Below the pieces are notes generated by a model, which did not search any database, was not told the DNA's origin, and saw only the letters and a list, made by a program, of their open reading frames with translations. A program made the position numbers and the translations under genes. 34,525 bases of DNA from Elusimicrobiota bacterium (GTDB taxonomy: Bacteria; Elusimicrobiota; UBA8919). This document shows, in pieces, positions 2,288-33,121 of the stretch (position 1 is the first letter of the stretch; the number at the start of each line of letters is the position of its first letter). Location of the stretch: NCBI GenBank assembly GCA_003452965.1, contig DMMW01000010.1, forward strand, positions 1-34,525, written 5' to 3'.

Positions 2288-3175
2288 CTACCTCTTTACC
2301 TTTGTCGCTAATGTTTTATATAATTCTAACGCTTCTTGTGGTTTCATGTTTTTATGCACAACATTATTTACTGCTTTTATCATTGCAATAGGATTTTCGC
2401 TTTGGAATATGTTTCTGCCCATATCCACACCCGACGCACCCTGCTGTACGGCACTATATGCCATTGTAAGTGCATCCAACACTGGCAGTTTTTTACCGCC
2501 TGCCATAACAATGGGAACAGGACATGATGCCGTTATAGTTTCAAAATCTTCTGGAACATAATATGTTTTTACTACATGTGCACCCAATTCTGCACATATA
2601 CGGCATGCAAGCCGAAAATATTTAGCATCCCTTACCATATCCTTGCCTACTGCGGTTACTGCTAAAACAGGTATTCCATAACGCATTCCCATATCAACCA
2701 ACTTGGTCATATTATGTATTGACCGTGTCTCAAATTCACCTCCGATAAATACCTGTATTGCCATAGCTGATACATTCATTCTGATAGCATCTTCAATATC
2801 AACAGCTATTTCTTCATTTGAAAGTTCTTTTAAGATGCTTGGTCCACCGCTTGTTCTCATAACTATAGGTGTTGTAAACGACGGAGGTATAGTAGTTCTC
2901 AAGATTCCGCGGGTCAACATAATTGCATCTGCATATTTTACAAGCGGAACAATATTTAAATCAATCCGTTCCAATCCGGTTGTAGGTCCCTGAAAATAGC
3001 CATGATCTATTGCCAGCATGACCGTGCGTCCAGTATCGCTGTTGAATATTCTTGACAGGCGGTTTTTCATACCCCAATCTAAAGAATTAGACCCTTTAAG
3101 AAAAAAACATTCCGATTTCATTGGAATATCTTCATAATATTTTTTTTCTTCTTTATTTGCGTCTGTTTCCGGCAT
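2288..3175 (-). CDS. DhnA-type class I aldolase (archaeal-type fructose-bisphosphate aldolase / ADH-synthase / LsrF family, DeoC-LacD superfamily).
   Basis: [17 protein letters not shown]... family signature. Start trimmed from the six-frame ORF (which begins at 3382) to ATG 3175, which has the SD GGAGGAG 4-5 nt upstream. The longer ORF would overlap the divergent cupin gene and its promoter. Confidence 0.75.
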
Positions 3176-3259
3176 AACTCCTCCCTGGAAATTTATTAAT
3201 TTTAATAACCTCATTATATATAAAAAATATTTTATTTTCAATAAAAATTTAAAAACCTC

Positions 3260-3287
3260 TTGCAAATTATCAATGTTTAGATACAAT
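3260..3287 (+). promoter_or_regulatory. Sigma70-like promoter TTGCAA-16 nt-TACAAT for the cupin-esterase transcription unit. Contains the 15-mer TGTTTAGATACAATA, which recurs at 4776-4790.
   Basis: Read directly: -35 at 3260-3265, -10 at 3282-3287, about 27 nt before the cupin ATG. Confidence 0.45.
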
Positions 3288-3313
3288 AATAGAAAATAAT
3301 ATTGGGAGATTTT

Positions 3314-3628
3314 ATGCCTATAATCTCGGGAAAGAATGCTGTGCAAAATACCGGTGAGTTCCCGGCATGGGGATTGGTTCACTTCAAAGCAGGACAGAAA
3401 AACATAACAGAATTACATTATCACGATAGTGACGAATTTTTCTTTATGATTGAAGGAAGATGTGTGATGAAATCGGAAGGGAAAATATATACTCTTGAAA
3501 AAGGCGATGTTTTTGTTACTCGCATGGGTGACGAACACGAACTTTTTGAGATATTGGAAGATACGACACTTTTTTGGCTATGCACAGAACTTCGCGGTCA
3601 AAAAAGGCAAGGACACCAGCACAGGTAA
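3314..3628 (+). CDS. Cupin-domain protein (cupin_2 fold).
   Basis: Two-His/Glu cupin motifs ([14 protein letters not shown] ... [13 protein letters not shown]). Start moved from 3302 to ATG 3314, which has GGGAGA upstream. Confidence 0.7.
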
Positions 3629-3654
3629 AAATGGATAAAGATTGGAGGAATGAT

Positions 3655-4617
3655 ATGTCATTAATATTTGGGATGTCTTTGAGAAAACTAAAAGAATATA
3701 AGGGCAGAAATCCGCGTCCTAAAGATTTCGATAAGTTTTGGGAAAGAGGTCTTTCTGAAATGAATTCAATAGCTCCAAAAATAAAAATAGTTCCTGCAAA
3801 GTTTCAGGTACCTTTTTGCAAGTGTTTGCATCTGTACTTTACTGGTGTAGGCGGAGCGCGTGTTCACGCAAAAGTTTTGCGTCCCAAAAAACCGGCTAAA
3901 AAACATCCTGCAATATTGATGTTTCACGGATATTCCTGCAGCAGCGGAGATTGGTACAACAAGCTTGCCTACGCAGCTTTGGGCTATACCGTTGCTTATT
4001 TAGATTGCCGCGGACAGGGTGGTTTATCCGAAGATAAAGGTGGGGTTACCGGCTGGACACTACACGGGCATATTGTTCGCGGATTAAGCGATTCGCCGGA
4101 AAAACTGTTATTCAGGAATATATTTCTTGATGTGGCCCAGATTGCCAAAATAGTAATGGAAATGTCCGACGTGGATGAAAACCGCGTTGGCGCCATAGGC
4201 GGCAGCATGGGCGGGGCACTTTCGTTAGTTTGCGCCGCATTGGAGCCGAGAATCAGAAGAGTTGCGCCTAATTATCCGTTTCTTTGCGATTATAAAGGTG
4301 TATGTGAAATGGATGTGACTAAAACAGCTTATGCGGAATTTCACGATTATTTCAGGAAATTTGATCCGTTACATGAAAGGGAAGAAGAGTTTTTTAACAA
4401 ACTTGGCTATATAGATGTTCAGCATTTTTGCAGCAGGATAAAAGCGGAGGTATTGATGGGTACCGGCTTGATGGATACCGATTGTCCGCCGTTCAGTCAG
4501 TTTGCCGCATACAATAAAATTAAGTCAAAAAAAACATTAGAAATATATCCGGATTTTGCGCATGAGGATTTTCCATATCATAACGATAAAATCTTCCAGT
4601 TTATGAGCAATCTATGA
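3655..4617 (+). CDS. CE7 acetyl-xylan esterase / cephalosporin-C deacetylase family (AXE1).
   Basis: Aligns along its whole length with B. subtilis Cah: N-term ...PKDFDKFW..., HGY, GGSMGG nucleophile (GxSxG), and C-terminal H of the triad (FAHED). Start set at ATG 3655 with SD GGAGG 6 nt upstream. An in-frame ATG at 3631 is a possible alternative. Confidence 0.85.
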   Translation: MSLIFGMSLRKLKEYKGRNPRPKDFDKFWERGLSEMNSIAPKIKIVPAKFQVPFCKCLHLYFTGVGGARVHAKVLRPKKPAKKHPAILMFHGYSCSSGDWYNKLAYAALGYTVAYLDCRGQGGLSEDKGGVTGWTLHGHIVRGLSDSPEKLLFRNIFLDVAQIAKIVMEMSDVDENRVGAIGGSMGGALSLVCAALEPRIRRVAPNYPFLCDYKGVCEMDVTKTAYAEFHDYFRKFDPLHEREEEFFNKLGYIDVQHFCSRIKAEVLMGTGLMDTDCPPFSQFAAYNKIKSKKTLEIYPDFAHEDFPYHNDKIFQFMSNL

Positions 4618-4639
4618 TTAGGACAATGTAAAGGAAGTT

Positions 4640-4740
4640 ATGAAAATAGGCTTCATTGGATTAGATAAAATATATAGATGAAAAAATGGTTGCATTGGAA
4701 AATAAATGCAATCCCAAAAAGGTTACTCCATATTTTGTTT
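4640..4740 (+). pseudogene. Degraded duplicate of the first ~110 bp of the YchF-like gene at 5614. It keeps its own RBS and ATG, and an in-frame stop follows after 13 codons.
   Basis: Read directly: atgaaaataggcttcattgga...gcattggaaaataaatgcaatcccaaaaaggttactccatattttgt aligns with 5614-5725, with a 15-bp deletion and a few substitutions. Confidence 0.6.
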
Positions 4741-4843
4741 AATAAAATCTCTTTAAAAAAATTAGTGTTTAGATACAATATTTATGAGGATTCTTGTAAT
4801 AAAAACTTTGTATGCTTGAAAAGGTGATATTTTTGTTGCCCGT

Positions 4844-5617
4844 TTGGAGGATAACATAAATAAATATGAATTTGGGTTTTTAGGTGCAAAATTCCGGGTT
4901 CACAAAGACTGGAAACATTTTTTTGAAAATATATGCCTGGAATGTATAGAGAAGAATATTAGAAGAGATAAAATTACACCTTCTAAAGAAAATATTTTCA
5001 AAGTTTTTGAGAAACTCGGTCCTAAAGATATTAAAGTAGTAATAATCGGGCAGGACCCATATCCGCAACCAAATATTGCAACAGGCCGCGCATTTGAAGT
5101 TAAAGAATTGAATTCATGGCTTATTCCATTCAGGCAAGCAACATTAAGAAACATTTTGAAAATGTTGTATAACTGGCATGACAGTAAGAAGAATAAAAAA
5201 GCTTCAAGATTAGAAAAAATTGAAATTATAAAAAACGCAATAGAAAAGAAAGATTATAATATATTGCCGCCGGATAAGGTATTTGATTATTGGGAAAAAC
5301 AAAAAATATTTTTATTGAATTTTGCATTGACATACAGGATGGGTAATTGTGATAGTGGGGATTCTCATTTAATGTATTGGAAAGATTTTAATTATAAATT
5401 GGTAAGATGTTTATCAAAAATAAATAAAAATATAGTATGGTTGTTATTCGGAAAAGTTAACGAAGAAAATAACTGGATTATTAAACAAAATGCTTTTTAT
5501 ATTGCCCATCCGTCTGACAGGAGGGGAATAAACCCTAAGGATTTAGAAAAAATACGTCAATTTTTCGATATTTCGGTTAAGAAACATAAAATAGATTGGC
5601 TCGGAGGAAATTTATGA
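4844..5617 (+). CDS. ung: Divergent family-1-like uracil-DNA glycosylase (UNG-type).
   Basis: VVIIGQDPYPQ (GQDPY catalytic Asp motif), LLNFALTYR, LLFGK, and HPSDRRG matching the HPSPLS His motif. There is no in-frame ATG near the 5' end. The only start is TTG 4844, and the first ~6 codons derive from a cupin-gene fragment. Confidence 0.6.
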   Translation: MEDNINKYEFGFLGAKFRVHKDWKHFFENICLECIEKNIRRDKITPSKENIFKVFEKLGPKDIKVVIIGQDPYPQPNIATGRAFEVKELNSWLIPFRQATLRNILKMLYNWHDSKKNKKASRLEKIEIIKNAIEKKDYNILPPDKVFDYWEKQKIFLLNFALTYRMGNCDSGDSHLMYWKDFNYKLVRCLSKINKNIVWLLFGKVNEENNWIIKQNAFYIAHPSDRRGINPKDLEKIRQFFDISVKKHKIDWLGGNL

Positions 5618-6303
5618 AGATAGGTTTTATCGGGATAGAAATACCTGAGGGTAAGATAAAATACAAAGATGAAAAATTTGTCGCATTGGAAAATAAATGC
5701 GAACCTAAAAAAATAACTCCATATTTTGTAGAATTCATTATTAATGAATTCGTTCAGGTAAACGCTATTGTTATTTCAAAAGATAAAATACTTGATTTGC
5801 TTATTCCCGATATTGAAAAACTTGAAGCACGTGTGCAGAATACAAATGATAATTTTGAAAAAGAATTAATAAAAAAATGTATATCTTGTCTTGAAAATGA
5901 AATGCCTTTATGTGACATCGTTTTTAACGAACAGGAACAGAAACTTCTTCAGATGCTGTCACCGAATAGCATGAAACCGATTGTAATTATTGATGACAAA
6001 GTTGAAACAAACGAAATAATTGAAAAAGTATTAAAAAAATCACAAACTATATTTTTTTATACAGCGGGAAAAGATGAGGTTCATGCCTGGCCTGTAAAAG
6101 CAGGTTCCGATATTGTGACCTGTGCGGGCAGGATACATTCCGATTTAGCACGCGGATTTATAAAAGCGGATATTGTAAGTTTTGACAATTTTATGAAATG
6201 CCATAATTTTAATGATGCCAAGACAAAAGGATTGGTAAAGCTAGTAGATAGGGAATATATTATCCAAGAATCAGATATTATAGAGATACGCTTCAATGTA
6301 TAA
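5614..6303 (+). CDS. YchF/Obg-family-like protein that keeps the C-terminal TGS/DUF933 domain but lacks a functional GTPase G domain: its P-loop is degenerate (GIEIPEGKIK instead of GxPNVGKST) and about 130 aa of G domain are missing.
   Basis: C-terminal 90 aa align closely with E. coli YchF (FYTAGKDEVHAWPVKAGSDIVTCAGRIHSDLARGFIKADIVSFDNF...IIQESDIIEIRFNV). Start set at ATG 5614, with SD GGAGGA 5 nt upstream. Overlaps the ung stop. Confidence 0.65.
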   Translation: MKIGFIGIEIPEGKIKYKDEKFVALENKCEPKKITPYFVEFIINEFVQVNAIVISKDKILDLLIPDIEKLEARVQNTNDNFEKELIKKCISCLENEMPLCDIVFNEQEQKLLQMLSPNSMKPIVIIDDKVETNEIIEKVLKKSQTIFFYTAGKDEVHAWPVKAGSDIVTCAGRIHSDLARGFIKADIVSFDNFMKCHNFNDAKTKGLVKLVDREYIIQESDIIEIRFNV

Positions 6304-6390
6304 ACAAAAAGCATAGAATTGAGAGATATTAAAATAAGAATCTTGGAATAGATTATTTCATCAAAATAAATAAAATGGTGTAATTTAAAA

Positions 6391-6630
6391 ATGAAGATTT
6401 TGTATCGTGATGTTAAAAAATATTGTGTGTTGACGAATAGAGAAGTGGAAGTCTTGCAGAAACTTATTCATAATACATTACCCAACGGGAATGAAGAAAT
6501 AATTCCTGTTCAGAAAATAAAATGTCCATATGCTATCAAGTGTTTCTATGAAGCGAGAGATTGCATTTACACTGAAAGCAATATCAATTCTAAAAATGAT
6601 CCCTTAATATTCAAAAATGAAGAGAAGTAA
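6391..6630 (+). CDS. Small hypothetical Cys-containing protein (79 aa).
   Basis: ORF only. No strong RBS. Overlaps the next gene by 14 nt, which suggests coupling. No family recognised. Confidence 0.3.
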   Translation: MKILYRDVKKYCVLTNREVEVLQKLIHNTLPNGNEEIIPVQKIKCPYAIKCFYEARDCIYTESNINSKNDPLIFKNEEK

Positions 6631-7714
6631 ATTGGAACTTAAATATAAACCGGATTTTGATTATGCAAAAGAAATGTGGAATCATTATTGGGCAAAAGAA
6701 GTATTGAAACGTCCGCTTGTGGTTGCCAATGTAGTTAAACAAGAAGGAAAAACTGTTGATAAAGATAAGTATAAGTATTATAATGCATGTACGAAGAATT
6801 ATAGAGAACAACTGACGATAATTGATGAATGGTTGGATAATACGTTATTTCTTGCTGAATCAATTCCGTGTTTTTCTCCAAGTCACGGTCCTGACCAGTT
6901 TGCTGCAATGCTCGGTGCTGATTTAAAATTTTCAGAAAGTAGCAAAACTACGAATTGGGTAGAACCTATAGTAGAAAATTGGGAAGAATTTATCCCGAAG
7001 ATTAAATTAAATGAAAATAATTCCGTCTGGCAAAGTCTTCTGGAATATTCAAAGATTCTTAAAGAACATTCAAAGGGGAAATATCTCGTTGGGATTTGCG
7101 ATTTTTATTCAAATGCCGATATGTTAAGTGCGATTCGGTCTCCGGCTAAATTGTGTATGGATTTTTATGATTATCCCGAATCAATAGCAAAGGCAATGTT
7201 ATCAGTCAGAAAATTATATAAAACGGTATATAATTCTTTATATGAAGCAGGCGGAATGAACAACGAAACCGGTACTATAGGGTGGATTCCTTTTTGGTGT
7301 AAAGATAAATATGCAACGATTCAATGTGATTTTATATGTATGGTATCACCGAAAATTGCAAATGAATATATAATTCCGGCATTAGAGGAAGAGGCGAATT
7401 TTCTTGACCATTGCATCTATCATCTTGACGGTCCCGGAGCATTACCACATCTTGATAATATTCTTGCAATAAAAAAAATTGATGCAATTCAGTGGATACC
7501 CGGTGATGGGCAGCCGCCGCAGTATGAATGGATTGATGTTCTGAAAAAATGCCAGAAAGCTGGTAAGGGACTTCAGATTTTGGATGTCACAAGCATAGAT
7601 ATTATAAAAAAATTCAGCAAAGAACTCAGTCCGGAAGGACTGGTATACTGCATAGACGTAAAGACTGAAAGAGAAGTTGATGAAATAACGACATGGCTTG
7701 AAAAAAACACTTGA
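6617..7714 (+). CDS. Putative URO-D-like (uroporphyrinogen decarboxylase / MtaA-CmuA-like methyltransferase fold) protein.
   Basis: 365 aa. His/Cys cluster DHCIYHLDGPG...IQWIPGDG, and overall length and pattern reminiscent of the URO-D-like superfamily. The assignment comes from recollection of motifs, not an alignment. Confidence 0.4.
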   Translation: MKRSKLELKYKPDFDYAKEMWNHYWAKEVLKRPLVVANVVKQEGKTVDKDKYKYYNACTKNYREQLTIIDEWLDNTLFLAESIPCFSPSHGPDQFAAMLGADLKFSESSKTTNWVEPIVENWEEFIPKIKLNENNSVWQSLLEYSKILKEHSKGKYLVGICDFYSNADMLSAIRSPAKLCMDFYDYPESIAKAMLSVRKLYKTVYNSLYEAGGMNNETGTIGWIPFWCKDKYATIQCDFICMVSPKIANEYIIPALEEEANFLDHCIYHLDGPGALPHLDNILAIKKIDAIQWIPGDGQPPQYEWIDVLKKCQKAGKGLQILDVTSIDIIKKFSKELSPEGLVYCIDVKTEREVDEITTWLEKNT

Positions 7715-7927
7715 AGCTCCATCCCGATAACAATCGGGATTATAACATTTACCATAAGATTTTAAGGAGCGGAATCCGGCCCGTCAAGGCTTCGGCCTTG
7801 GCTGGCTGCAGGATGAAGCTCCATCCCGATAACAATCGGGATTATAACATTTACCATAAGATTTTAAGGAGCGGAATCCGGCCCGTCAAGGCTTCGGCCT
7901 TGGCTGGCTGCAGGATGAAGCTCCATT
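7714..7927. repeat. 102-bp tandem direct repeat (2 full copies + 10 bp), GC-rich. Each unit carries two perfect hairpins: ATCCCGAT-aaca-ATCGGGAT, and CAAGGC-TTCG-GCCTTG with a UUCG-type tetraloop.
   Basis: Read directly: 7714-7815 = 7816-7917, identical. The six-frame 'ORF' 7711..7968 is just this repeat translated. Diverged partial copies of the unit occur at 16358-16415, and a shared ATCCGGCCCG core occurs at 95-104. Confidence 0.9.
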
Positions 7928-8993: not shown

Positions 8994-9052
8994 TAAAGGT
9001 GTTCCAACCTCTATACTCTATATGCTAATCTCTGTTGTTATTAGGAGGCAAA

Positions 9053-10516
9053 ATGTGGGATAAGAATGTTCTGCAAGATTTAATGAAGGAAAAATTGGCA
9101 AAATATAAATTTATTATAGTTTCCAATAGACAGCCTTATGTTTTTGATTATGTTGGAAGAAAAGTTAAATGTACAAAAACTATAGGTGGTTTGGTAACAG
9201 CAATGGATCCCGTAATGCAGGCCTCAGAAGGTGTATGGGTAGCTGCTTCTTCAGGTGATGCCGATAACAGTGTTATTGACAAAAATAATATTGTAAAAGT
9301 TCCTCCTGAAAAATCTGCATATTCAATGAAATTGATAAATCTAACAAAAAATGAAGAACAAGGTTATTATTACGGTTATTCAAATCAGGCATTATGGCCG
9401 TTAAGTCATATTGCGTATCGTCAGCCCAATTTTATGCATTCCGATTGGGAGACTTATAAAAATGTAAATAAAAGATTTGCAGAAAGTGTTCTGGAATTGT
9501 TTGATGATAAGCAGCCTTTTATTTGGTTACAGGATTATCATTTAACTCTTTGTGCAAAATACATAAAAGAAAAAAAACCGGAAGCGGTGAGTTCCCTTTT
9601 TTGGCATATACCATGGCCAAATCCGGAAGTTTTCAGAGTATGTCCTCAGAAAACTGAAATTTTAGAGGGATTGTTAGCGAATGATTTATTGGGTTTTCAT
9701 ATCAAATATCATTGTCATAATTTTCTTGAAACATGTGAAATTGAATTAGAATCAAAAGTTGACTGGGAAGAATCAGCAGTAACGTATAAGGGACATAAGA
9801 CTTTAATTAAAGATTTTCCTATAAGTGTGGATTTTGAATCATTGTCTGAAATGGCTGGTAGTGCAGATGTTACTAAAAAGGTCGAGGATTTGTCTTTTGA
9901 AATAGACCCTCCGTATGAAATTCTTGCACTGAGTATTGACAGAGTTGATTATACAAAAGGTATAATTGAAAAAATTCGGGCTGTAGATAAATTTTTAGAA
10001 AAATATCCTGAATACCATAAAAAATTCGTTTTTTTTCAAAAGGGTGCGCTTAGCAGATTACATATTAAGGCATATAAGGAATTAATAGATGAAATTCAAG
10101 CGTTGACTGAGGAAATAAACTGGAAATATCGTTCCGGCAATTGGTATCCGATTGTGCTTTTAAACAAGAAAATTGATTATACAACGCATATCGCTTTATA
10201 TCGGGCATGCGATTTGTGTTTGGTAGGTTCTCTTCATGATGGAATGAATTTGGTTGCAAAAGAATTTATCTCTGCTAATGTTGATATAAAAGGCATTCTA
10301 ATGTTATCAAAATTCACAGGTGCCGCTAGGGAACTGAAAGATGCTGTTCTGGTAAATCCGTACGATACCGAAGGTTTTGCTGATGCTATAAAAATGGCGA
10401 TTGAAATTCCGCCCAATGAAAAAAAGGAACAGATAAAAAGGATGCGCGAACATATTCAAGAAAACAATATTTATAAGTGGGCTGGCAAGTTTATAAGCAC
10501 ATTAATAAAAATATAA
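9053..10516 (+). CDS. otsA: Trehalose-6-phosphate synthase (GT20, OtsA family).
   Basis: GT20 motifs: SNRQPY, GGLVTA, LWPLSHIAYRQ, WLQDYHLTL, FWHIPWP, GFHIKYHCHNF. Start at ATG 9053 with SD AGGAGG 4 nt upstream. Confidence 0.9.
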   Translation: MWDKNVLQDLMKEKLAKYKFIIVSNRQPYVFDYVGRKVKCTKTIGGLVTAMDPVMQASEGVWVAASSGDADNSVIDKNNIVKVPPEKSAYSMKLINLTKNEEQGYYYGYSNQALWPLSHIAYRQPNFMHSDWETYKNVNKRFAESVLELFDDKQPFIWLQDYHLTLCAKYIKEKKPEAVSSLFWHIPWPNPEVFRVCPQKTEILEGLLANDLLGFHIKYHCHNFLETCEIELESKVDWEESAVTYKGHKTLIKDFPISVDFESLSEMAGSADVTKKVEDLSFEIDPPYEILALSIDRVDYTKGIIEKIRAVDKFLEKYPEYHKKFVFFQKGALSRLHIKAYKELIDEIQALTEEINWKYRSGNWYPIVLLNKKIDYTTHIALYRACDLCLVGSLHDGMNLVAKEFISANVDIKGILMLSKFTGAARELKDAVLVNPYDTEGFADAIKMAIEIPPNEKKEQIKRMREHIQENNIYKWAGKFISTLIKI

Positions 10517-10536
10517 AAGCGGGCTATAGCACATAT

Positions 10537-12009
10537 ATGATTAAATTAATAAAAAAAATGTCTTTTAAATTAAAATTGATTATAATTATTTCTTTTATAA
10601 ATATTTTGGTTATATCTATTATTTCATATATAAGCATGCTCCACATGGAAAGAAGTTTAAAAGAGAGAATGGAATTAAGAACCAAGGTGATTGTTGATGT
10701 AATAGTACATAGCATTGATGACGAGACAAAATTAAAACGAGAGGTAATAGAAGAATATTCTAACTTTATTATCAATGAACGGGAGATACAATATATAGCA
10801 TTTTTTGATAAAAGAAATAATTTAATAAGTATAGCCGGTGAACGTGGAAAAACTGAAATTAAATTTGTTACAGAAAATATATTTGATATGCAAGATAATA
10901 TATACGATGTTTACGGGGAGATAATAGGAAAAAATAAAATAAAAATAGGTTCTATAATAGTAGGATTCCCGATTACAAAGCTGAAGCAGGCAATTAATAA
11001 AGGAGTAGTAACAAGTATAATATTATGGTTAATAGCTATCGTCGTGATAATGATTTTTAATTATTCAAGTTTAACATATTTTTTACGACCTATCAGAGAT
11101 TTATTTCGTGCAGCTGAATGTGTTTCCAAAAGGGACTTTAATTGCAAGATACCTGTTTATAATGCTGATGAAATCGGAAAAATATCAGAACAATTTAATC
11201 TTATGATAGTTGAATTAGAATCTTTTTATAATTCACTTGAGGAAAAAGTTAAAATAGCAACTAATGGATTAGAAGCATCAAATGAAAAATTAAAAGAGAA
11301 AACAAAAGAGTTGGAAGAAATGGATAAAAGGAAAACAGAGTTTGTTTCCATTGTCGCCCATGATTTAAGGTCGCCTCTTACTTCAATGATGGGTTTTGCG
11401 GATACATTAAACAATGAAAATTTAAATTTAAGCGAACAAGACAAAAAAAGATATATAAATATAATACGCACTGAAACGCGGCGACTATCAAAGCTAATTT
11501 CAAATTTCCTTGATATATCTTTAATTGAAGAAAACAAAATTGTTATGGATGCTGAAAAAACAGATTTAGAAGAATTAATTAATGATGTGCTTAATTCTAT
11601 GAGCGAAAACATAATAAAAGGGATAAGAATATCGCTTGAAGTTGGAGAAGATATTCCTCAAATTTATATGGACAGAGATAGAATAATTCAAGTTTTACAG
11701 AATCTCATTATCAATGCATTAAAATATTCACCTGAGATGTCTGAGATTAAAATTATAGCCAAAAGGTTTCCCGATGAAGTAAGGATAAGTGTAATAGACC
11801 AAGGTCCTGGAATACCGGACAGGCAAAAAGAAAAAATATTTAATAAATTTAGCAAATTGAGTGAACAAAAAGCAAAAAAGGAGTCTGGAATAGGTTTAGG
11901 ATTGTTCATAGCAAAATCTATTGTTAATCTGCATGGTGGCAAAATATGGGTTGAAGATGCTGAAAATAAAGGCAGTAATTTTTCATTTACATTGCCAATA
12001 AAGGAATAA
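10537..12009 (+). CDS. Membrane sensor histidine kinase (2 TM, HAMP, HisKA, HATPase_c). No response regulator adjacent.
   Basis: H-box VAHDLRSPLTSM, N-box NLIINALKYS, G1 DQGPGIP, G2 GIGLGLFIAKSIVNLHGG. Start chosen at ATG 10537 so it does not overlap otsA. 10558 is an alternative. Confidence 0.8.
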   Translation: MIKLIKKMSFKLKLIIIISFINILVISIISYISMLHMERSLKERMELRTKVIVDVIVHSIDDETKLKREVIEEYSNFIINEREIQYIAFFDKRNNLISIAGERGKTEIKFVTENIFDMQDNIYDVYGEIIGKNKIKIGSIIVGFPITKLKQAINKGVVTSIILWLIAIVVIMIFNYSSLTYFLRPIRDLFRAAECVSKRDFNCKIPVYNADEIGKISEQFNLMIVELESFYNSLEEKVKIATNGLEASNEKLKEKTKELEEMDKRKTEFVSIVAHDLRSPLTSMMGFADTLNNENLNLSEQDKKRYINIIRTETRRLSKLISNFLDISLIEENKIVMDAEKTDLEELINDVLNSMSENIIKGIRISLEVGEDIPQIYMDRDRIIQVLQNLIINALKYSPEMSEIKIIAKRFPDEVRISVIDQGPGIPDRQKEKIFNKFSKLSEQKAKKESGIGLGLFIAKSIVNLHGGKIWVEDAENKGSNFSFTLPIKE

Positions 12010-12013
12010 AGTA

Positions 12014-13417
12014 GTGTTTAGAAAATATTTTCCGAAAGAAATAAAAATAAAACAAAGAGTTTTTGAACAGAGTATTCTAATAGCAAGTATCGTAAAATGG
12101 ACTTTATTGGCGATAATAATAGGAACTGTTGTAGGATTTTCTACCGGACTATTTTTATTTTCTTTGGATATTACAATTAGTTTTTTTAATAGATTTAATT
12201 ATTATTTTTTTATTTTACCAATAATTATTTTACTTATTGCCATAACAATAAGGAATATTTCTCCTGAATCGGAGGGACATGGCACAGAAAAAGTTATAGA
12301 ATCTATTCATAAAACACACGGACAAATTTCTTGGAAGGTTATACCCATCAAAGCCATAACTTCGATTCTTACTATTACTTTCGGAGGTTCGGTAGGTAAG
12401 GAAGGCCCTTGCGCACAGATAGGGGGTGGAATAGCTTCTTTATTCTCAAACATTTTAAAATTTCATCCAATTGACCGTAAAAAACTTGTAATTTGTGGAA
12501 TAAGTGCCGGTTTTGCTGCCGTTTTTGGAACTCCTATTGCTGGTGCGCTTTTCGGTGTTGAGGTTTTGTTCATAGGACAGATTTTTTATGAAGTATTATA
12601 TCCGTCTTTCATTGCTGGAATTGTGGGTTTTCAAACCTGCAGATTATTCGGTATAACATATTTCACACATCCGATAAATCTTGTCCCTAAATTTACTGAT
12701 TTATTTTTATTAAAAGTAGTTGCTTTTTCAATTCTTATTGGTTTGGTTGCATATTTATTCATTGAGACATTAAATTTCACCCATAAAAAGTTCAAAAAGA
12801 TTCCTTATAAAAAGAGAGCTATATTAGGTGGTTTATTAGTTGTATTTATTGTACAGGTTACTTCTCGGAGATATCTTGGACTTGGATTGGATACTATAGC
12901 GCAAGCTATCAATGGTGAACATATACCTAAACTTGCTTTTTTGTGGAAGACAATAGTAACATCTATTACATTGTCATGTGGCGGTAGTGGTGGGATTGTG
13001 ACTCCTATTTTTTACGTAGGTGCTGCAAGCGGGAACTTGTTTGCAAGGATATTTAATTTTGATTTAGGTACATTTTCAGCAATTGGTATGACATCTCTTC
13101 TTGCTGCCTGCACAAATACACCAATTGCCTCATCAGTTATGGCGATAGAGTTATTTGGACCCAAAGTGGGTATTTATTCTGCGATTTGTTCAATTATTAG
13201 TTTTACTATAGTTGGCTACAGGTCTGTATATCCAAGCCAAATATTAGGTGTTCTAAAAAGCCAGAGTTTCAAGGTGGAATTAAATAAAGAAATTAAGGAT
13301 GTAGAAAGCACGGAACAATTCAAGATGTTTTCACAACGAAATACATTAACACATATTATAATATCAATATATTTAAAGATAAAAAAATGTAGATTATTCA
13401 TGAAAAAAAAGAAATGA
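12014..13417 (+). CDS. ClC-family voltage-gated chloride channel / H+-Cl- antiporter.
   Basis: GSVGKEGP and GFAAVFGTPIAGALFGVE selectivity-filter motifs. Many TM segments. GTG start with AAGGA upstream. Its stop overlaps the ATG of the otsB 5' duplicate (ATGA). Confidence 0.8.
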   Translation: MFRKYFPKEIKIKQRVFEQSILIASIVKWTLLAIIIGTVVGFSTGLFLFSLDITISFFNRFNYYFFILPIIILLIAITIRNISPESEGHGTEKVIESIHKTHGQISWKVIPIKAITSILTITFGGSVGKEGPCAQIGGGIASLFSNILKFHPIDRKKLVICGISAGFAAVFGTPIAGALFGVEVLFIGQIFYEVLYPSFIAGIVGFQTCRLFGITYFTHPINLVPKFTDLFLLKVVAFSILIGLVAYLFIETLNFTHKKFKKIPYKKRAILGGLLVVFIVQVTSRRYLGLGLDTIAQAINGEHIPKLAFLWKTIVTSITLSCGGSGGIVTPIFYVGAASGNLFARIFNFDLGTFSAIGMTSLLAACTNTPIASSVMAIELFGPKVGIYSAICSIISFTIVGYRSVYPSQILGVLKSQSFKVELNKEIKDVESTEQFKMFSQRNTLTHIIISIYLKIKKCRLFMKKKK

Positions 13418-13479
13418 AATATTTTTTTAAAGAATTAGGAAAAATAAAAGGGTACAAAATATTAAGAAAATTATGAAAA
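13414..13479 (+). pseudogene. Duplicated 5' end of otsB (first ~14 codons, then diverged and closed by a stop).
   Basis: 13414-13451 is identical to 13703-13740 (ATGAAATATTTTTTTAAAGAATTAGGAAAAATAAA). Similarity continues with a 12-nt deletion. Confidence 0.6.
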
Positions 13480-13507
13480 ATCATGGTTTTTCACTAGACG
13501 CGATATT

Positions 13508-13531
13508 TTCATCAAGGCATGCCTTGATGAA
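13508..13531. promoter_or_regulatory. 24-bp perfect palindrome TTCATCAAGGCA|TGCCTTGATGAA inside the ~225-bp insert between the otsB 5' duplicate and otsB. Candidate dimeric-regulator operator or hairpin.
   Basis: Read directly and checked base by base. Confidence 0.5.
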
Positions 13532-13702
13532 CGGCTCAAAAAACACTAAAATTTCAAAACTCACTTGCTATGCTCGTTCAGACAGTTGAAATTTTTTAAC
13601 GGTTTTTTATCGCCTAAATATCGCTATATCGTTCAAAACCAGATTTTTCGATAATGTAATTATTCTTGAAAGATGTGAATTATTTTTTAAAAAAAATAAA
13701 AA

Positions 13703-14473
13703 ATGAAATATTTTTTTAAAGAATTAGGAAAAATAAAGAAAAAAATAAAAGGATATAAAATATTACTCTGCCTGGATTATGATGGTACTCTAACCCCCAT
13801 AGTTAAAAAGCCAGAATATGCCAAACTCGGGCAAAACATTAAGCATGCTTTAGAAAACATTAAAAGTAATAAAAATATTATATTGGCTATAATATCAGGC
13901 AGGACTTTATCAGGAATAAAAAAATTAGTCAATCTTAGAAATGTTATTTATGCAGGCAATCACGGTTTTGAAATAGAGATAGGCAGGGATGTTTTTATCC
14001 ATCGGGGACTCAAGGAAGCTATTCCGATAATCAGCAAAATAAAAAAAGCGATAAGTAAAAAAATAAAAGGAATACGGGGTGCATTTATTGAGGATAAAGA
14101 ATTTACATTAAGCATTCATTGGCGGTTGGTCAAAAAAAAATATTTAAATAAGTTGTTTCTAATAATTAAAAATATTATACATAATAATAGTAAAATAAGA
14201 TTAACCATAGGTAAAAAGGTATGGGAAATCAGGCCTAATATTGCTTGGGATAAGGGTAAAGCCGTTGAATTAATATATTCAAAAGTAAATAAAAATAATA
14301 ATTTAAAAATCATATATATAGGTGATGATACAACTGATGAAGATGCTTTCTCGGTATTGAAAAAAGAAATAACAATAAAAATCGGTAAATCAAATAAGTC
14401 AAAAGCAAAATATTATTTAAAAAAACAATCAGAAATAAAAAATATTCTCAATTTATTGAGTAATATAGGCTGA
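13703..14473 (+). CDS. otsB: Trehalose-6-phosphate phosphatase (HAD superfamily, OtsB).
   Basis: HAD motif I LDYDGTL. Motifs III/IV KG...IYIGDDTTDEDAF. 256 aa. Confidence 0.85.
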   Translation: MKYFFKELGKIKKKIKGYKILLCLDYDGTLTPIVKKPEYAKLGQNIKHALENIKSNKNIILAIISGRTLSGIKKLVNLRNVIYAGNHGFEIEIGRDVFIHRGLKEAIPIISKIKKAISKKIKGIRGAFIEDKEFTLSIHWRLVKKKYLNKLFLIIKNIIHNNSKIRLTIGKKVWEIRPNIAWDKGKAVELIYSKVNKNNNLKIIYIGDDTTDEDAFSVLKKEITIKIGKSNKSKAKYYLKKQSEIKNILNLLSNIG

Positions 14474-14484
14474 TAATATATTTT

Positions 14485-15132
14485 ATGAATAATCCGTTTA
14501 TTTTCTTTACACGTTTCAATCTCACCGAGCTTTTAGGGATAAAGGCAAAGAACATAATAGAACTTCTTGAAGGCATTAAATCTGTTCCGGGTTCATCCAT
14601 TTATTTTCATACGCACAGATATATTCAGCAGCACCATTTTTTATCTCCCGAGCCACCGAATGATTTTGCCTATTGGGTTACAAATATTTTACAGGAAGAT
14701 AAACTTGGCGAGCGGTTGGCATCAATTGATATAATACAATTCAAAAAAATTTCAGATATTAGAGAAATATTTATTACAATAATAGAACAATACATAAACA
14801 GAAATCCGTCAAGCAGACAAGCATATGAAGGGGAACAGTTCCACTTTATGAAATCAATCTCATTTATAATGAAAACCCAATATTCTGCAAAGGATTTGAA
14901 GGAATTTCTCGAAATTGTAAAAAAAGTATCTATACACTCCATATATTTCCATATGTTTGAAGCGCGGCTTCGTCTTGAAAAAGTGGAAAATGATTTTTCG
15001 TACTGGATGACAACTGAGTTAAGAGAGGGGGATTTAGCGGATAAGATATCAAAACTGGACCCATATACTCAAACATTGGAATCATTAAGAAATGAAATAA
15101 TATTTTTGATTGAAAAGAGAATAAATGGCTAA
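14485..15132 (+). CDS. Hypothetical protein made of two ~90-aa internal repeats. Its end overlaps the treT start by 8 nt.
   Basis: Repeat 1 SSIYFHTHRY...NDFAYWVTNILQEDKLGERLASIDIIQFKK. Repeat 2 HSIYFHMFEARL...NDFSYWMTTELREGDLADKISKLD. No family recognised. Confidence 0.55.
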   Translation: MNNPFIFFTRFNLTELLGIKAKNIIELLEGIKSVPGSSIYFHTHRYIQQHHFLSPEPPNDFAYWVTNILQEDKLGERLASIDIIQFKKISDIREIFITIIEQYINRNPSSRQAYEGEQFHFMKSISFIMKTQYSAKDLKEFLEIVKKVSIHSIYFHMFEARLRLEKVENDFSYWMTTELREGDLADKISKLDPYTQTLESLRNEIIFLIEKRING

Positions 15133-16357
15133 AATAAATGATTATATTAAAATAGTAGGTGAGGATATAATAGAAGAGTTAAAAATCCTTAGTGAAAGAT
15201 TAAAAGGTAAAGTTATCCAAAATATCAATTCTACCTCTGTAGGTGGAGGTGTTGCAGAGATATTGAACAGAATAGTTCCGCTAATGAATGAACTTGGAGT
15301 GGATACCCGTTGGGATTTGATAAAAGGCGGCGAAAGATTTTTCAATATAACAAAGAGATTTCACAATACGCTGCATGGCATACCAGCCGAAATAAGCGAC
15401 GAAGAATTTGATTATTTTTTACAAGTGGAAAACGAGAACGCACAAGCGATAAATTTTTATGGCGATGTGATATTGATTCATGACCCGCAACCAATCGGGC
15501 TTATCAACAGAAAAAAAGATTTCGGTAATAATAAGAAGTGGATATGGAGATGCCATATTGACATTTCCCATCCCGAAATTAAGGTATGGGATTTTTTAAA
15601 GCAGTTTATTAATTCATACGATGCATCAATATTTTCTGCTCCGGTGTTTTCAAAGGAACTTCCCATAAAACAATTCTTAATCTCACCATCTATAGATCCG
15701 CTTTCCGATAAAAACAAAGAACTTGATGCATCTACTATTGATTCTGTTTTATATAAATATAAAATTACCAAAGATAAACCGATTATAACACAGATTTCAC
15801 GCTATGATATATTGAAAGACCCGCTTGGAGTAATAGATGCGTTCAAATTAGTACGGAAACATATTGATTGTCAATTAATACTTGCTGGAAATACAGCTAC
15901 TGATGATCCGGAACATGACAAGGTTTTAAATATGGTAAAAGAGAAAGCTGGAAATGATTCGGATATTCATATACTTGTAATAGAACCTGCAAATAATGAT
16001 ATTGAAATAAACGCTTTACAGCGTGCATCGGATATAGTTTTACAAAAATCACTTAAGGAAGGCTTCGGACTTACAGTTTCTGAAGCACTTTGGAAGAAAA
16101 AACCTGTAATTGCAGGGGCTGTTGGTGGAATTCCGCTACAAATTACGCATAAACATTCTGGAATTCTTACCCATACTGTGGAAGGAACGGCTTATTGGAT
16201 AAAACAACTCATTAATTCGCCTGAATATGCCAAAAAACTCGGTCTAAACGGGCATGAACACATAAAGAACAATTTTCTTCTAACTCGCCATATTCTCGAA
16301 TACTTTCTTTTATTCACTTCACTTTATCACAGCGGTGACATCATCCACCTTAATTAG
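15125..16357 (+). CDS. treT: Trehalose glycosyltransferring synthase (TreT, GT4; NDP-glucose + glucose -> trehalose).
   Basis: Collinear identity blocks with Pyrococcus/Thermococcus TreT: INSTSVGGGVAEIL, FFNITKRFHNTLHG, WRCHIDIS, PSIDPLSDKN, KPIITQISRYD, QRASDIVLQKSLKEGFGLTVSEALWKKKPVIAGAVGGIPLQI. Confidence 0.85.
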   Translation: MAKINDYIKIVGEDIIEELKILSERLKGKVIQNINSTSVGGGVAEILNRIVPLMNELGVDTRWDLIKGGERFFNITKRFHNTLHGIPAEISDEEFDYFLQVENENAQAINFYGDVILIHDPQPIGLINRKKDFGNNKKWIWRCHIDISHPEIKVWDFLKQFINSYDASIFSAPVFSKELPIKQFLISPSIDPLSDKNKELDASTIDSVLYKYKITKDKPIITQISRYDILKDPLGVIDAFKLVRKHIDCQLILAGNTATDDPEHDKVLNMVKEKAGNDSDIHILVIEPANNDIEINALQRASDIVLQKSLKEGFGLTVSEALWKKKPVIAGAVGGIPLQITHKHSGILTHTVEGTAYWIKQLINSPEYAKKLGLNGHEHIKNNFLLTRHILEYFLLFTSLYHSGDIIHLN

Positions 16358-29881: not shown

Positions 29882-32800
29882 ATGAGCAATCAATTTATAA
29901 CTAATCAGGAAAAACTACTGTCGGAAGTAATAAATAATATTCTCCCATCCACACAAAAGTTAAATATCTTGGTTGGATATTTTTATTTTTCCGGATTCCA
30001 GGAAATTTATAAAAATATAGCAGATAAAGAAGTTAAAATCCTCATTGGTTTAGATATTGAAAAAGATATTTTAAACAAAGTCAAAGAATTTGAACTAATT
30101 CAATCTATAAATCTTTCCCGAAGTCAAGTAAGAGATAATTTCAATAAATCGTTTATCCAATTATTTAACGATTCAGATTATTTTGATATTGAAGAAAAAC
30201 AAGAGGCATTCCGAATATTTCTTGAAAAAATTATAAACAAAACACTTGAAATTAGAAAAACCGTCCAACAAAACCATGCAAAATTATATGTTTTTGAAAA
30301 CAAGCCGGAACATAATCAGAACGGTGAATTCTTAGGAACAATAATTACCGGTTCAAGCAACTTAACCCGTTCAGGATTAAAAGGACAGCGTGAAATAAAT
30401 GTTATATTTCGTGACAATGGCAATTACGAGGAAGCACTCAAAATATTCAACGAACTTTGGAAGGATGAAAACTCGGTAGAAATAGTCGGTAAAACTACAA
30501 CGGACAGTTTTCTTATCGAAATAATAGAAAAAATCTGGATTGATAAACTTTACGATCCATATTTATTATATATTCGTGTCTTGGAAGAATATTTTTCATT
30601 TACTAAGAAAGAAGGTATCATTCTTCCTTCCGAAATTACAAAAAATAAATTCATGAATCTTAAATATCAGAATGACGCTATTTCGCAATCAATAGAAATT
30701 CTTAACCGGCACAACGGCGTTATCATTGCGGATGTTGTTGGATTGGGAAAAAGTATTATTGCTTCTGCAGTAGCCCATAACATGGGATTACGAACAATAA
30801 TTATCTCACCACCGCATCTAATAGGGCAATGGGATGATTATCATATTGATTTTGGATTTAACGCTAAAATATTCAGCAGCGGTAAAATACAGGAAGCATT
30901 AGAATATGATTTTGCATATAATGAGCCAAAATTAATTATTATAGATGAATCGCATAAATATCGCAACGAACTAAACATTGACTACGGATATTTACATCAA
31001 CTATGCCAGGGAAACAAAGTAATTTTATTAACCGCTACGCCATTTAACAACCAACCGCAGGACATATTTTCAATGATAAGATTATTTCAAATACCTGCTA
31101 GGTCCACAATACAAACAGTAGATAATTTATCATACAGATTTAAAGAACTTATCAAGGAATATAAAGAAATAAAAAAATCACAAATACAAAAAAAGTCGGA
31201 TATGAAAGATGAAATTAAAATATTGGCACAAAAAATCCGTGATATACTTGCTCCATTGGTTATTCGTCGGTCAAGATTGGACTTGGAAAAAATTAATGAA
31301 TACCGAGAAGACCTTAAAAAACAAGGGATATCATTTCCTGAAGTTAAAGATCCTACAATTTTAGACTATCCGCTTGGAAAACTTAGTATACTTTACGAAA
31401 AAACTCTTGAAAAAATTGTATCCACGGAAGACGAATCACAGGGCTTCATGGGAACAAGATATAAACCGACAAATTATCTTAAAGAAGAACACAAAAAACA
31501 AGTTGCTGATGAATTAGGTGTAAAAGAAGATTTACTTGTACAGGTACAAATAAACCTGTCAAAATTTATGCGTCGCCTATTAGTCAGGCGTTTTGAAAGC
31601 TCGGTAAAAGCATTTCACGATTCCTTGAACTCACTAATAAAATCATCCGAATACATGCGTGATTGGTATAATAAATTTGAGAGTGTTCCAATATACAAAA
31701 AAGGTGATTTGCCGGACATAGAAATCCTTGAACAATCCACCAGTGAAGATTTAGATGAAGAACTCCAGCAGATTACATTTGACGAGCAACTAAAAAAATA
31801 TTATGACAAAGGACTTAAAATAATAAAAAAAGAATGGCTAAAAGACACTTTCATTAAAGACATTGAAAAAGACATAAAACTACTAAAAGAAATACGTGCA
31901 GAATGGTTTAAAGACGGCATCAAACACGACCCGAAATTAGAATGTTTTGAAAAAGAAATAAAGCAACAACTAAAAAAAGAACCCAACAGAAAAATAGTTG
32001 TATTTACCGAATTTTCAGATACAGCAAACTATCTATACGAAAAACTCAAAAACAAATTGAAAATATTTAAATATACCTCCGCGGACTCAAGTGAAACCAA
32101 CAAAAAAATAATCAAAGAAAACTTTGATGCCGGTAATCCTATACAAAAAGACGACTACGACATTCTTATTGCTACCGATGCAATTTCAGAAGGCTTTAAC
32201 CTTCACAAAGCAGGTATTATATTCAACTATGACATCCCATACAACCCGACAAGAGTAATACAACGGGTAGGACGTATAAACCGCATAAACAAAAAAGTAT
32301 TTAATGAACTTTACATCTATAATTTCTTTCCAACGGCTACCGGTGAAGCAGAAACACGGATAAAAAAGATATCTACATTAAAAATTTCATTATTTAATGC
32401 TTTACTTGGTACCGACATAAAAGTATTAACCTCGGATGAAGAATTGGAATCCTATTACAAAAATGAATTTATAAAATCAATGGCAAATCAAGAAGAACTA
32501 TCATGGGATGTAAAATATCGCAATGAACTTGGAATATTGAAAAATAAACATCCAGATATATTACAAAAGGCAATGGCAGTTCCCCATCGTGCCCGCATTA
32601 GAAGAACAGAAAAGAAAGATACAGCTGGAGTCATTGTATTTGCGCGAAAAGGGAAAGAATACACGTTCAAACTTGGCATTTCAAAGGAAGATTATACAAC
32701 ATTAGGTCCTGAAACTGCACTAAAACTATTTGAATCAGAAATAACCGAAAAATCGGAAAAAATAAGTAAAAACTTTGAACCGATATACCAGCATGTAAAA

Positions 32801-33121
32801 AACAACCTATTCAACAAAAAAACCCAGGTATCTTTTGATAAAGGAAAAACCGAATCAATAAACAAATTAGAAGTATTACAAGAAAAGATTCCAGATAAAA
32901 AGGACTATTTCAACGATTTAAAATATATAATAAAAGAACTGGATGCATTACCTGAAAGATATGCTAAACAAATCCGTCAAATATCAGAAAAATCCCTTAA
33001 AAAAGATGTTGAAGAACTGCAAAAAGATGTATCGCAGAAATACTTAATAGAAATCATAGAAAAAGCACGAAGAATAGAAGATGAAGCAGAAAGCTTAATA
33101 CTCACAGAAGAACTGATATAA
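29882..33121 (+). CDS. Fusion protein: N-terminal PLD-family (HKD) nuclease domain + SNF2/Rad54-like SF2 helicase/translocase.
   Basis: HKD motif NHAKLYVFEN...GSSNLTRSG. SNF2 motifs: I DVVGLGKS, II IIIDESHKYRN, III LLTATPFNNQPQDIFSMIRLF, V LIATDAISEGFNLH, VI QRVGRINRINKK. Confidence 0.8.
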   Translation: MSNQFITNQEKLLSEVINNILPSTQKLNILVGYFYFSGFQEIYKNIADKEVKILIGLDIEKDILNKVKEFELIQSINLSRSQVRDNFNKSFIQLFNDSDYFDIEEKQEAFRIFLEKIINKTLEIRKTVQQNHAKLYVFENKPEHNQNGEFLGTIITGSSNLTRSGLKGQREINVIFRDNGNYEEALKIFNELWKDENSVEIVGKTTTDSFLIEIIEKIWIDKLYDPYLLYIRVLEEYFSFTKKEGIILPSEITKNKFMNLKYQNDAISQSIEILNRHNGVIIADVVGLGKSIIASAVAHNMGLRTIIISPPHLIGQWDDYHIDFGFNAKIFSSGKIQEALEYDFAYNEPKLIIIDESHKYRNELNIDYGYLHQLCQGNKVILLTATPFNNQPQDIFSMIRLFQIPARSTIQTVDNLSYRFKELIKEYKEIKKSQIQKKSDMKDEIKILAQKIRDILAPLVIRRSRLDLEKINEYREDLKKQGISFPEVKDPTILDYPLGKLSILYEKTLEKIVSTEDESQGFMGTRYKPTNYLKEEHKKQVADELGVKEDLLVQVQINLSKFMRRLLVRRFESSVKAFHDSLNSLIKSSEYMRDWYNKFESVPIYKKGDLPDIEILEQSTSEDLDEELQQITFDEQLKKYYDKGLKIIKKEWLKDTFIKDIEKDIKLLKEIRAEWFKDGIKHDPKLECFEKEIKQQLKKEPNRKIVVFTEFSDTANYLYEKLKNKLKIFKYTSADSSETNKKIIKENFDAGNPIQKDDYDILIATDAISEGFNLHKAGIIFNYDIPYNPTRVIQRVGRINRINKKVFNELYIYNFFPTATGEAETRIKKISTLKISLFNALLGTDIKVLTSDEELESYYKNEFIKSMANQEELSWDVKYRNELGILKNKHPDILQKAMAVPHRARIRRTEKKDTAGVIVFARKGKEYTFKLGISKEDYTTLGPETALKLFESEITEKSEKISKNFEPIYQHVKNNLFNKKTQVSFDKGKTESINKLEVLQEKIPDKKDYFNDLKYIIKELDALPERYAKQIRQISEKSLKKDVEELQKDVSQKYLIEIIEKARRIEDEAESLILTEELI

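Follow-up and report, generated by a model that had tools for sequence, protein, structure and literature searches.

Few NTPases are conserved in every domain of life; YchF/OLA1 is one of them, and what it does remains a matter of debate. The concept of the pseudo-GTPase, a G-domain protein that has lost the ability to bind or hydrolyse nucleotide, comes from eukaryotic work. YchF is near-universal (PMC12641178), and in Escherichia coli it binds the 50S ribosomal subunit mainly via its helical domain, whose acidic helix faces complement the basic proteins uL14 and bL19 and whose lysine tip contacts helix H62 of the rRNA (PMC11814078). The ATPase-dead variant H114A still binds 50S, YchF promotes subunit splitting and blocks re-association, and ATP hydrolysis was suggested to be needed mainly for the release of YchF from 50S (PMC11814078). 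The YchF site on 50S has been compared with those of RsfS and eIF6 (PMC11814078). The protein analysed here, a P-loop-less YchF relative that we call mini-YchF, is encoded at 5614..6303 on the forward strand of a 34,525-nucleotide stretch from an Elusimicrobiota bacterium (contig DMMW01000010.1, assembly GCA_003452965.1; the whole stretch is referred to as the window). The open reading frame (ORF) is intact, starts with ATG and encodes 229 residues before the stop codon. Its N-terminus reads MKIGFIGIEIPEGK.

The domain tests agree with a preliminary description of this DNA, which had read the gene as a YchF derivative without nucleotide-binding machinery but with an intact TGS domain. The model PF06071 (YchF-GTPase_C) covers residues 146-228 practically from end to end (model positions 2-84 of 84, E 2.3e-28), and this C-terminal domain aligns to residues 281-363 of Haemophilus influenzae YchF (1JAL). 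No MMR_HSR1 or other G-domain model of Pfam was found on mini-YchF, even at E 0.1. The YchF equivalog model TIGR00092 gives 101.6 bits against a cut-off of 279.2, with the match confined to the C-terminus, while a full-length control (P0202) reaches 355 bits. PF02824 (TGS) scores 19.6 bits against the Pfam gathering threshold of 22.2; the fold matches RelA/SpoT and other TGS domains at low rank. An hhalign comparison of a 37-member short-form profile with 20 full-length YchFs gives E 7.5e-58 over 220 columns at 30% identity. The alignment is colinear, with short-form residues 10-229 set against YchF residues 39-366 and the differences confined to discrete gaps. The proteins thus form a conserved short family whose YchF ancestry is clear from the profile alignment. 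Mini-YchF is almost certainly a derivative of the YchF/OLA1-type Obg-family ATPases from which the nucleotide-handling parts are gone.

The joint multiple alignment revealed that the gap boundaries are common to all short forms, so that the relatives share the same deletions. Mini-YchF is about 134 residues shorter than a 363-residue YchF, close to the roughly 130 residues of G domain first reported as lost; the loss is nevertheless spread over five separate blocks rather than being a single one. The missing blocks are the Walker A loop with helix 1 (26-34 residues), 19 residues of switch II directly after EF(I/V), about 21 residues forming the loop in which E. coli YchF has its catalytic His114, 10-12 residues of the Lys-rich coiled-coil tip, and 57 residues with G4 (NxxE) and G5. 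The retained elements are strand 1 (MKIGFxG), strand 4 (DAIVV), the KP strand, the last helix of the G domain and the whole TGS domain. Both long coiled-coil helices are also kept, with the motifs ELxxxDxExxExR and LExExPL common with YchF. The YchF-specific strand-helix-strand insert is retained as well, with the short-form consensus PEGKxKYxDExLxALxxKxxPKKxxPFFxEF corresponding to xNxGxVxVPDxRLxxLxxxxxPKKxxPAxxEF in YchF.

Four segments can be distinguished along the forward strand of the gene. The remnant of the G-domain core (residues 1-55, 5614..5778) contains strand 1 MKIGFIG, the conserved PEGK, the insert KYxDE..L..K..PKK..P...EF and strand 4 DAIVI; in the predicted model it comprises strands 2-6, 13-16, 33-35, 38-43 and 51-55 and a helix at 20-29, and the excision sites of the P-loop with helix 1 and of switch II both fall within it. 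The alpha-helical, coiled-coil domain (residues 56-118, 5779..5967) is modelled with helices at 56-76, 80-94 and 106-115, and its tip is about 10-12 residues shorter and lacks the Lys cluster. The KP strand and the last G-domain helix follow (residues 119-143, 5968..6042; model strand 123-126, helix 132-142). In YchF the KP strand precedes G4, and the 57 residues that YchF has between these two elements are gone. The YchF C-terminal TGS-like domain covered by PF06071 occupies residues 144-229 (6043..6300). AlphaFold2 with the family alignment gave a model with a pLDDT of 94.6 and a pTM of 0.87, in which the remaining three parts, namely the beta-sheet stump, the helical domain and the TGS domain, are predicted to fold compactly in a YchF-like spatial arrangement. 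The top 15 Foldseek matches of this model in the PDB are all YchF/OLA1 chains (E ~1e-19 to 1e-15, query-normalised TM score 0.74-0.82), among them 8KIE, the structure of E. coli YchF bound to 50S. On the strength of the alignments, the AlphaFold2 model and the Foldseek matches, the first reading of the N-terminus as strand 1 followed by loss of the P-loop was right.

No complete G1-G5 set was overlooked, and the segments of G1, G3, G4 and G5 are all missing in the hidden Markov model (HMM) alignments. For G1, YchF positions ~8-38 (P-loop and helix 1) have no counterpart in mini-YchF by either hhalign or the multiple alignment. A Walker A pattern, [GA]xxxxGK[ST], occurs in the first 60 residues of one of 214 short-form sequences, by chance. 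The G3 motif DxxG is found in the switch II region of only 6/214, where a 19-column gap directly follows EF(I/V), and both alignments place a 57-column gap after the KP strand, at which G4, (N/T)(M/L/V)xE, and G5 are missing. By TIGR00092 mini-YchF falls outside the YchF ATPase family, because it fails on G1, G3, G4 and the score cut-off alike. A conserved G-x5-GK string is left (G7...G13-K14), in which the next residue is I/V, not S/T, and which opens a beta strand in the model. Gly13-Lys14 could be a vestigial Walker A GK or could correspond to the strand-2 glycine of YchF; the HMM alignments put the glycine on the latter. As judged from its sequence, mini-YchF cannot be an NTPase, and neither binding nor hydrolysis of ATP or GTP is predicted.

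The short form is widely distributed. A protein search returned, among its best 120 clusters at 90% identity, one 146-residue fragment and 119 clusters that match with 55-100% identity over 98-100% of the query; nearly all of the latter are exactly 229 residues long, and those named by NCBI are called 'DUF933 domain-containing protein'. In a scan of one genome per species of GTDB, at least 67 species representatives match over the full length, 66 of them with complete ORFs (228-250 residues) and one cut by a contig end; the figure is a lower bound. A profile search of 1.84 billion representatives gave about 40 clusters at 50% identity in the 225-235-residue class, followed by full-length YchFs of 312-373 residues. 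A search from a divergent Omnitrophota member added more than 100 further clusters of 226-235 residues, the named ones being almost all from Omnitrophota. Proteins of 240-287 residues were considered as transitional forms and rejected, as they are N-terminally truncated fragments of full-length YchF. All carriers among the matches listed are metagenome-assembled genomes (MAGs) or single-cell genomes. They belong to Elusimicrobiota, Omnitrophota, Desulfobacterota, SAR324, Nitrospirota, Acidobacteriota, Planctomycetota (including a Scalindua), Fibrobacterota, Lentisphaerota, Calditrichia, Margulisiibacteriota, Hydrogenedentes, Latescibacteria, Marinimicrobia, Poribacteria, Kiritimatiellota, Ignavibacteria and others. 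No mini-YchF was found among the viral contigs of IMG/VR or the plasmids of PLSDB (the latter carry full-length ychF only), and PADLOC gave no defence-system match for it. IMG labels some short forms 'ribosome-binding ATPase YchF', and we found no description of a P-loop-less YchF family in the literature on YchF and DUF933. The mini-YchF family is old, widespread and without a published description.

Conservation within the family is high. Exactly 229 residues are found in 163 of the 214 collected members, and the positions G13, K14, D19, L25, K28, P31, K33, E40, D66, R73, E94, E96, P98, L99, H175, R180, G181, F182 and I183 are invariant; the window protein carries all of them. The ratio of non-synonymous to synonymous substitution rates (dN/dS) is 0.07 against the closest relative, RIFOXYD2_FULL_34_15 (dS 1.4), and 0.13 for the unsaturated pair L007 and L008 (dS 0.37). 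Within the former comparison it is 0.075 for the N-terminal remnant and 0.023 for the TGS domain. The N-terminal stump is as constrained as the rest of the protein, and the gene is kept by selection, as had been proposed at the outset. The other option raised then, a recent in-frame deletion, or a decaying ychF pseudogene in one genome, is refuted by the recurrent architecture, the YchF-colinear profile alignment and the purifying selection, and its probability is negligible. Only the superficial look of the sequence and the nearby decayed 5' fragment (see below) speak for it. Against it, the same architecture is present in at least 66 other GTDB species representatives, mostly at exactly 229 residues and at 42-84% identity, with length and deletion boundaries recurring in more than 20 phyla, and the low dN/dS, the confident fold prediction and the intact Shine-Dalgarno sequence and ORF point the same way.

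A subset of the family shares a distinctive set of residues. In the main clade, Cys100 (PLC vs PLR in YchF-type sequences), His157 (HAW vs RAW) and Cys170 (CAG vs AAG) stand beside Cys89, the equivalent of E. coli Cys168, and the universally conserved His175. The resulting C89-C100-H157-C170-H175 pattern occurs in the window protein and in 145/214 sequences, and divergent Omnitrophota short forms keep canonical-type residues at these positions. The main-clade Cys/His residues could form a putative metal or redox site.

Compared with known systems, mini-YchF has the most in common with YchF/OLA1 (TIGR00092; 1JAL, 2DBY, 2OHF, 5EE0, 8KIE), with which it shares the PF06071 domain, the inserted helical domain, the domain order, the fold and the strand-helix-strand insert (VPDxRL...PKK...EF). 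It differs from these ~363-residue proteins in its length of 229 residues and in the absence of G1, G3/switch II, the catalytic-His loop, G4 (NxxE), G5 and the Lys-rich tip. Like pseudo-GTPases, it is a member of the GTPase superfamily that has been kept as a scaffold without catalytic motifs; classical pseudo-GTPases, however, keep the whole G fold with mutated motifs, whereas in mini-YchF the motif segments are deleted and a beta-sheet stump is left. RelA/SpoT and DRG/Rbg1 also possess a TGS beta-grasp domain, which Foldseek retrieved at lower rank, but their partner domains are different and the likeness does not go beyond the fold. Their TGS domain contacts h5 of the 30S subunit or tRNA (PMC11814078).

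The full-length proteins nearest to the short family are 320-336 residues long (P0155, P0182, P0294 and the Fermentibacteria forms at L073/L074). In the multiple alignment their switch II, loops and tip are already reduced in length, and they retain the P-loop. Unlike mini-YchF, the 320-336-residue variants keep Walker A (GxxGSGK[ST]) and the 57-residue G4/G5 segment. Because these P-loop-bearing relatives are already shortened, a stepwise reduction of YchF is suggested by the sequences. A wider class of YchF-like proteins of this length was also observed (P0155, P0182, P0283, L073, L074, L076, L077 and L083), with Walker A kept, switch II shortened or without DxxG, and shortened loops. Several of them have no Pfam MMR_HSR1 match and also go by the name 'DUF933 domain-containing protein'; the class may itself consist of degenerate ATPases. 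When P0155, the best full-length relative, was used as query, no YchF from Elusimicrobia was returned; no shared contig was recognised between the match lists of short-form and full-length YchF, and a metagenome scan with P0294 gave only 5 loci.

The position of the gene in Omnitrophota provides a further link between the two forms. A 334-residue P-loop-bearing Omnitrophota YchF (P0294, GLHGSGKS...DLPG) and a 75%-identical relative are encoded in a pgm-ychF-purH-folC-mnmE cluster (L086 and L088; folE also lies downstream in L086). In seven loci labelled Omnitrophota or Planctomycetia (L062, L066, L069, L071, L072, L095 and L096), the same slot is occupied by a short form of 229-234 residues, so that P0294 and the Omnitrophota short forms have the purH-folC-mnmE neighbourhood in common. 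The short form is followed by purH-folC in 7/7 of these loci and by mnmE in 6/7 (the contig of L062 ends first), and folE is downstream in both short-form loci examined for it (L095, L096). Since it is the positional equivalent of the P-loop-bearing ychF of relatives, the Omnitrophota short form looks like a reduced orthologue, which is simpler than an extra copy. Short-form sequences group mostly by lineage, with few cross-phylum near-identities, consistent with mainly vertical descent and some transfer.

The mini-YchF gene of the window is part of a tightly packed gene pair. The upstream gene, at 4844..5617 on the forward strand, is a divergent UDG-like gene (Pfam UDG 31.2 bits; TIGR00628 97 bits against a cut-off of 186) that carries a GQDPYP motif. 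Its TGA overlaps the ATG of mini-YchF by 4 bp (ATGA), and through this overlap mini-YchF is translationally coupled to the UDG-like gene. A Shine-Dalgarno sequence, GGAGG (5603..5607, forward strand), lies 6 nt 5' of the ATG and within the 3' end of the UDG-like ORF; the earlier reading of an uninterrupted ORF with a strong Shine-Dalgarno sequence holds. The identical pair with the same overlap is found in RIFOXYD2_FULL_34_15, and the mini-YchF protein is 100% identical to a hypothetical protein (P0001) of the MAG Elusimicrobia bacterium RIFOXYC2_FULL_34_12. Promoter and terminator scans around mini-YchF gave background level only, and no RNA element of Rfam matched in the window. In an unrelated MAG, an HhH-GPD DNA glycosylase gene (L087, 4339-5004) overlaps the start of the 333-residue degenerate YchF P0283, as the UDG-like gene does that of mini-YchF. 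That two glycosylase families are coupled to reduced YchFs may be chance.

A decayed second copy of the 5' end, which had been spotted upstream at the outset, was confirmed at ~4631..4751 on the forward strand. This frameshifted copy of the Shine-Dalgarno sequence and the first ~125 bp of the mini-YchF gene, with its ATG at 4640, aligns to 5604-5741 at ~85% identity, the Shine-Dalgarno sequence included, with a 17-bp deletion, owing to which it reads MKIGFIGLDKIYR-stop, an ORF of 13 codons. By blastn, 4663-4738 matches 5654-5729 at 85.5% and the orthologue in L006 at 84.4%, and the fragment is thus about equally distant (84-85%) from the functional genes of both genomes. Apart from mini-YchF and this fragment, no further YchF-like sequence was found anywhere in the 34.5-kb window. 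In the closest relative (RIFOXYD2_FULL_34_15, 84% protein identity) the order is DeoC on the reverse strand, UDG-like gene, mini-YchF. Between DeoC and the UDG-like gene the window carries ~1.55 kb more (3314-4751), made up of a cupin gene (3314-3628, forward strand), an AXE1 esterase gene (3655-4617, forward strand), both from gene calls, and the decayed fragment. Synteny blastn against the closest relative (L006) showed that window segments 2312-3310 and 4865-6389 are adjacent there and that AXE1 lies ~9 kb downstream. A look-up of the AXE1 protein for the origin of the fragment returned a match only in the window's own MAG. The fragment looks like the scar of a translocation or recombination that carried the mini-YchF start along with AXE1, with no evident function.

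Several other features of the window were recorded. A perfect tandem duplication of 102 bp (7712-7926, 2.1 copies, 100% identity), G+C-rich relative to its surroundings and without an Rfam match, lies between a 365-residue ORF (6617-7714; no Pfam, NCBIfam or PADLOC match) and an LDH/MDH gene. The heptamer CAGGATA is repeated 21.4 times (91% matches) at 2094-2243, between the genes of a class II aldolase and a DeoC-like aldolase. A trehalose-related cluster at 9035-16357 encodes an OtsA-like GT20 protein, a HAMP histidine kinase, a CLC channel, a trehalose phosphatase, a DUF5752 protein and a TreT-type trehalose synthase. At 29882-33121, a 1079-residue SNF2-type helicase has weak likeness to DISARM DrmD and DpdE (131 bits, far under the cut-offs), and is followed by a 344-residue ORF.

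Taking the retained domains together with the structural work on E. coli YchF, we propose that mini-YchF would act as a nucleotide-independent ribosome-associated factor. The mean net charge of the short family is -9.4 for the whole protein and -6.8 for the helical domain, and the helical domain of the window protein has -5. The acidic helical domain would bind 50S at its basic uL14/bL19 face, where E. coli YchF sits, leaving the TGS domain to reach the small subunit or a partner. In this way mini-YchF may influence how the subunits join or split, with no need for an ATP-driven cycle. Without the rRNA anchor the affinity would be lower and ATP-driven release unneeded; as the E. coli work suggests that hydrolysis is required mainly for YchF to leave 50S, the loss of the Lys tip may be what makes an ATPase-free version workable. 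RsfS and eIF6, anti-association factors that bind the uL14 region without an NTPase domain of their own and block subunit joining, act in the way proposed for mini-YchF, but their folds are unrelated to it, and the likeness is functional and hypothetical only. The early suggestion that the protein is kept for RNA or ribosome binding has been weakened in its RNA part, as the family is acidic and the Lys tip is gone; direct RNA binding fits the charge poorly, and binding to basic ribosomal proteins is plausible. In some lineages mini-YchF probably works together with a translational NTPase that has its own gene (EttA, BipA or an EF-G paralogue).

Several observations weigh against this mechanism. 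Ribosome binding is something that we infer for every member of the family. The family lacks both the Lys tip, through which E. coli YchF reaches H62, and the contact that follows helix 7 of the ATPase domain, so the E. coli binding mode cannot be kept in full, and the E. coli contact residues E166 and N174 correspond to variable positions in the short family. The gene context of short forms is heterogeneous in most lineages, the partner in the window is a UDG-like gene and not a translation gene, and the neighbouring translational NTPases represent no more than about three independent associations. We give the ribosome-factor mechanism slightly less than an even chance; the ancestry and the mechanism taken together stand at about even.

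Other roles for mini-YchF were also considered. As an accessory paralogue, it would antagonise or tune a co-resident full-length YchF by competing for its partners without cycling, as a natural dominant-negative or decoy. The near-universality of YchF makes a second, full-length copy a reasonable prior (PMC12641178), the partner-binding domains are retained, and the patchy spread and the 82-89% identity between MAGs labelled Thermodesulfovibrionia, Deltaproteobacteria and Ignavibacteria fit transfer. However, the Omnitrophota short form sits at the ychF locus, where replacement is simpler, none of the ~70 loci contains the short form and a full-length YchF together within 10 kb, and within phyla the sequences mostly cluster by lineage, like a vertically inherited core gene. 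We regard an accessory role as improbable. The short form could instead be the only YchF of this Elusimicrobia genome, of Omnitrophota and of other uncultured lineages, which we consider a tentative and still rather unlikely proposition. If this were true, a 'universal' translation-associated ATPase would have been replaced by a nucleotide-free scaffold, and the core function of YchF would lie in its helical and TGS domains; energy would then be unnecessary or would come from an EF-G paralogue or EttA encoded next to it.

The last point touches on a role in which mini-YchF would serve a translational NTPase, encoded by another gene, as its dedicated cofactor or adaptor and leave the energy step to it. 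In three separate clades the gene immediately upstream of the short form, on the same strand and at an intergenic distance of -3 to 206 bp, encodes such an NTPase: EttA in 6 loci (L035, L037, L041, L043, L039 and L051; the two that were scored, L035 and L043, exceed 950 bits with TIGR03719), an EF-G paralogue in 5 (L066, L069, L071, L072 and L095, all in the Omnitrophota-type ychF slot) and BipA in one (L028). Both full-length YchF loci of the Omnitrophota cluster (L086 and L088) have phosphoglycerate mutase upstream, not EF-G. The association nevertheless concerns 12 of ~70 loci and about three events, no such neighbour is present in the window or its close relatives, and adjacency by itself is no proof of interaction; this role is somewhat less probable than an accessory one. 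Least favoured of the three is a non-ribosomal role, as a redox or metal sensor acting through the clade-specific Cys/His residues or as a DNA glycosylase partner. The C-C-H-C-H pattern of the 145 main-clade sequences would suit a sensor, E. coli YchF is redox-regulated according to the NCBI name of TIGR00092, and the start of the gene is overlapped by the UDG-like gene in the window and RIFOXYD2, as is that of the degenerate YchF of L087 by the HhH-GPD glycosylase. On the other side, divergent short forms, including those at the Omnitrophota ychF locus, lack the Cys/His residues yet have the same architecture, glycosylase neighbours are found in two lineages only, and PADLOC finds no match, which leaves a non-ribosomal role distinctly unlikely.

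Mini-YchF amounts to an evolutionary separation-of-function experiment, in which the helical and TGS domains are under purifying selection and the nucleotide-binding elements are deleted. It indicates which parts of YchF carry the ATP-free function, and it is in line with the proposal, based on cryo-EM, that YchF hydrolyses ATP mainly to leave the 50S subunit. As a small protein that is predicted to fold well, it would be convenient for structural work on the 50S interaction. Since matches to PF06071, TIGR00092 or COG0012 in MAGs can be short forms, surveys of marker genes or gene content, such as those of Omnitrophota, may wrongly count these proteins as the universal ATPase. The existence of this family suggests that part of YchF's job needs no ATP.

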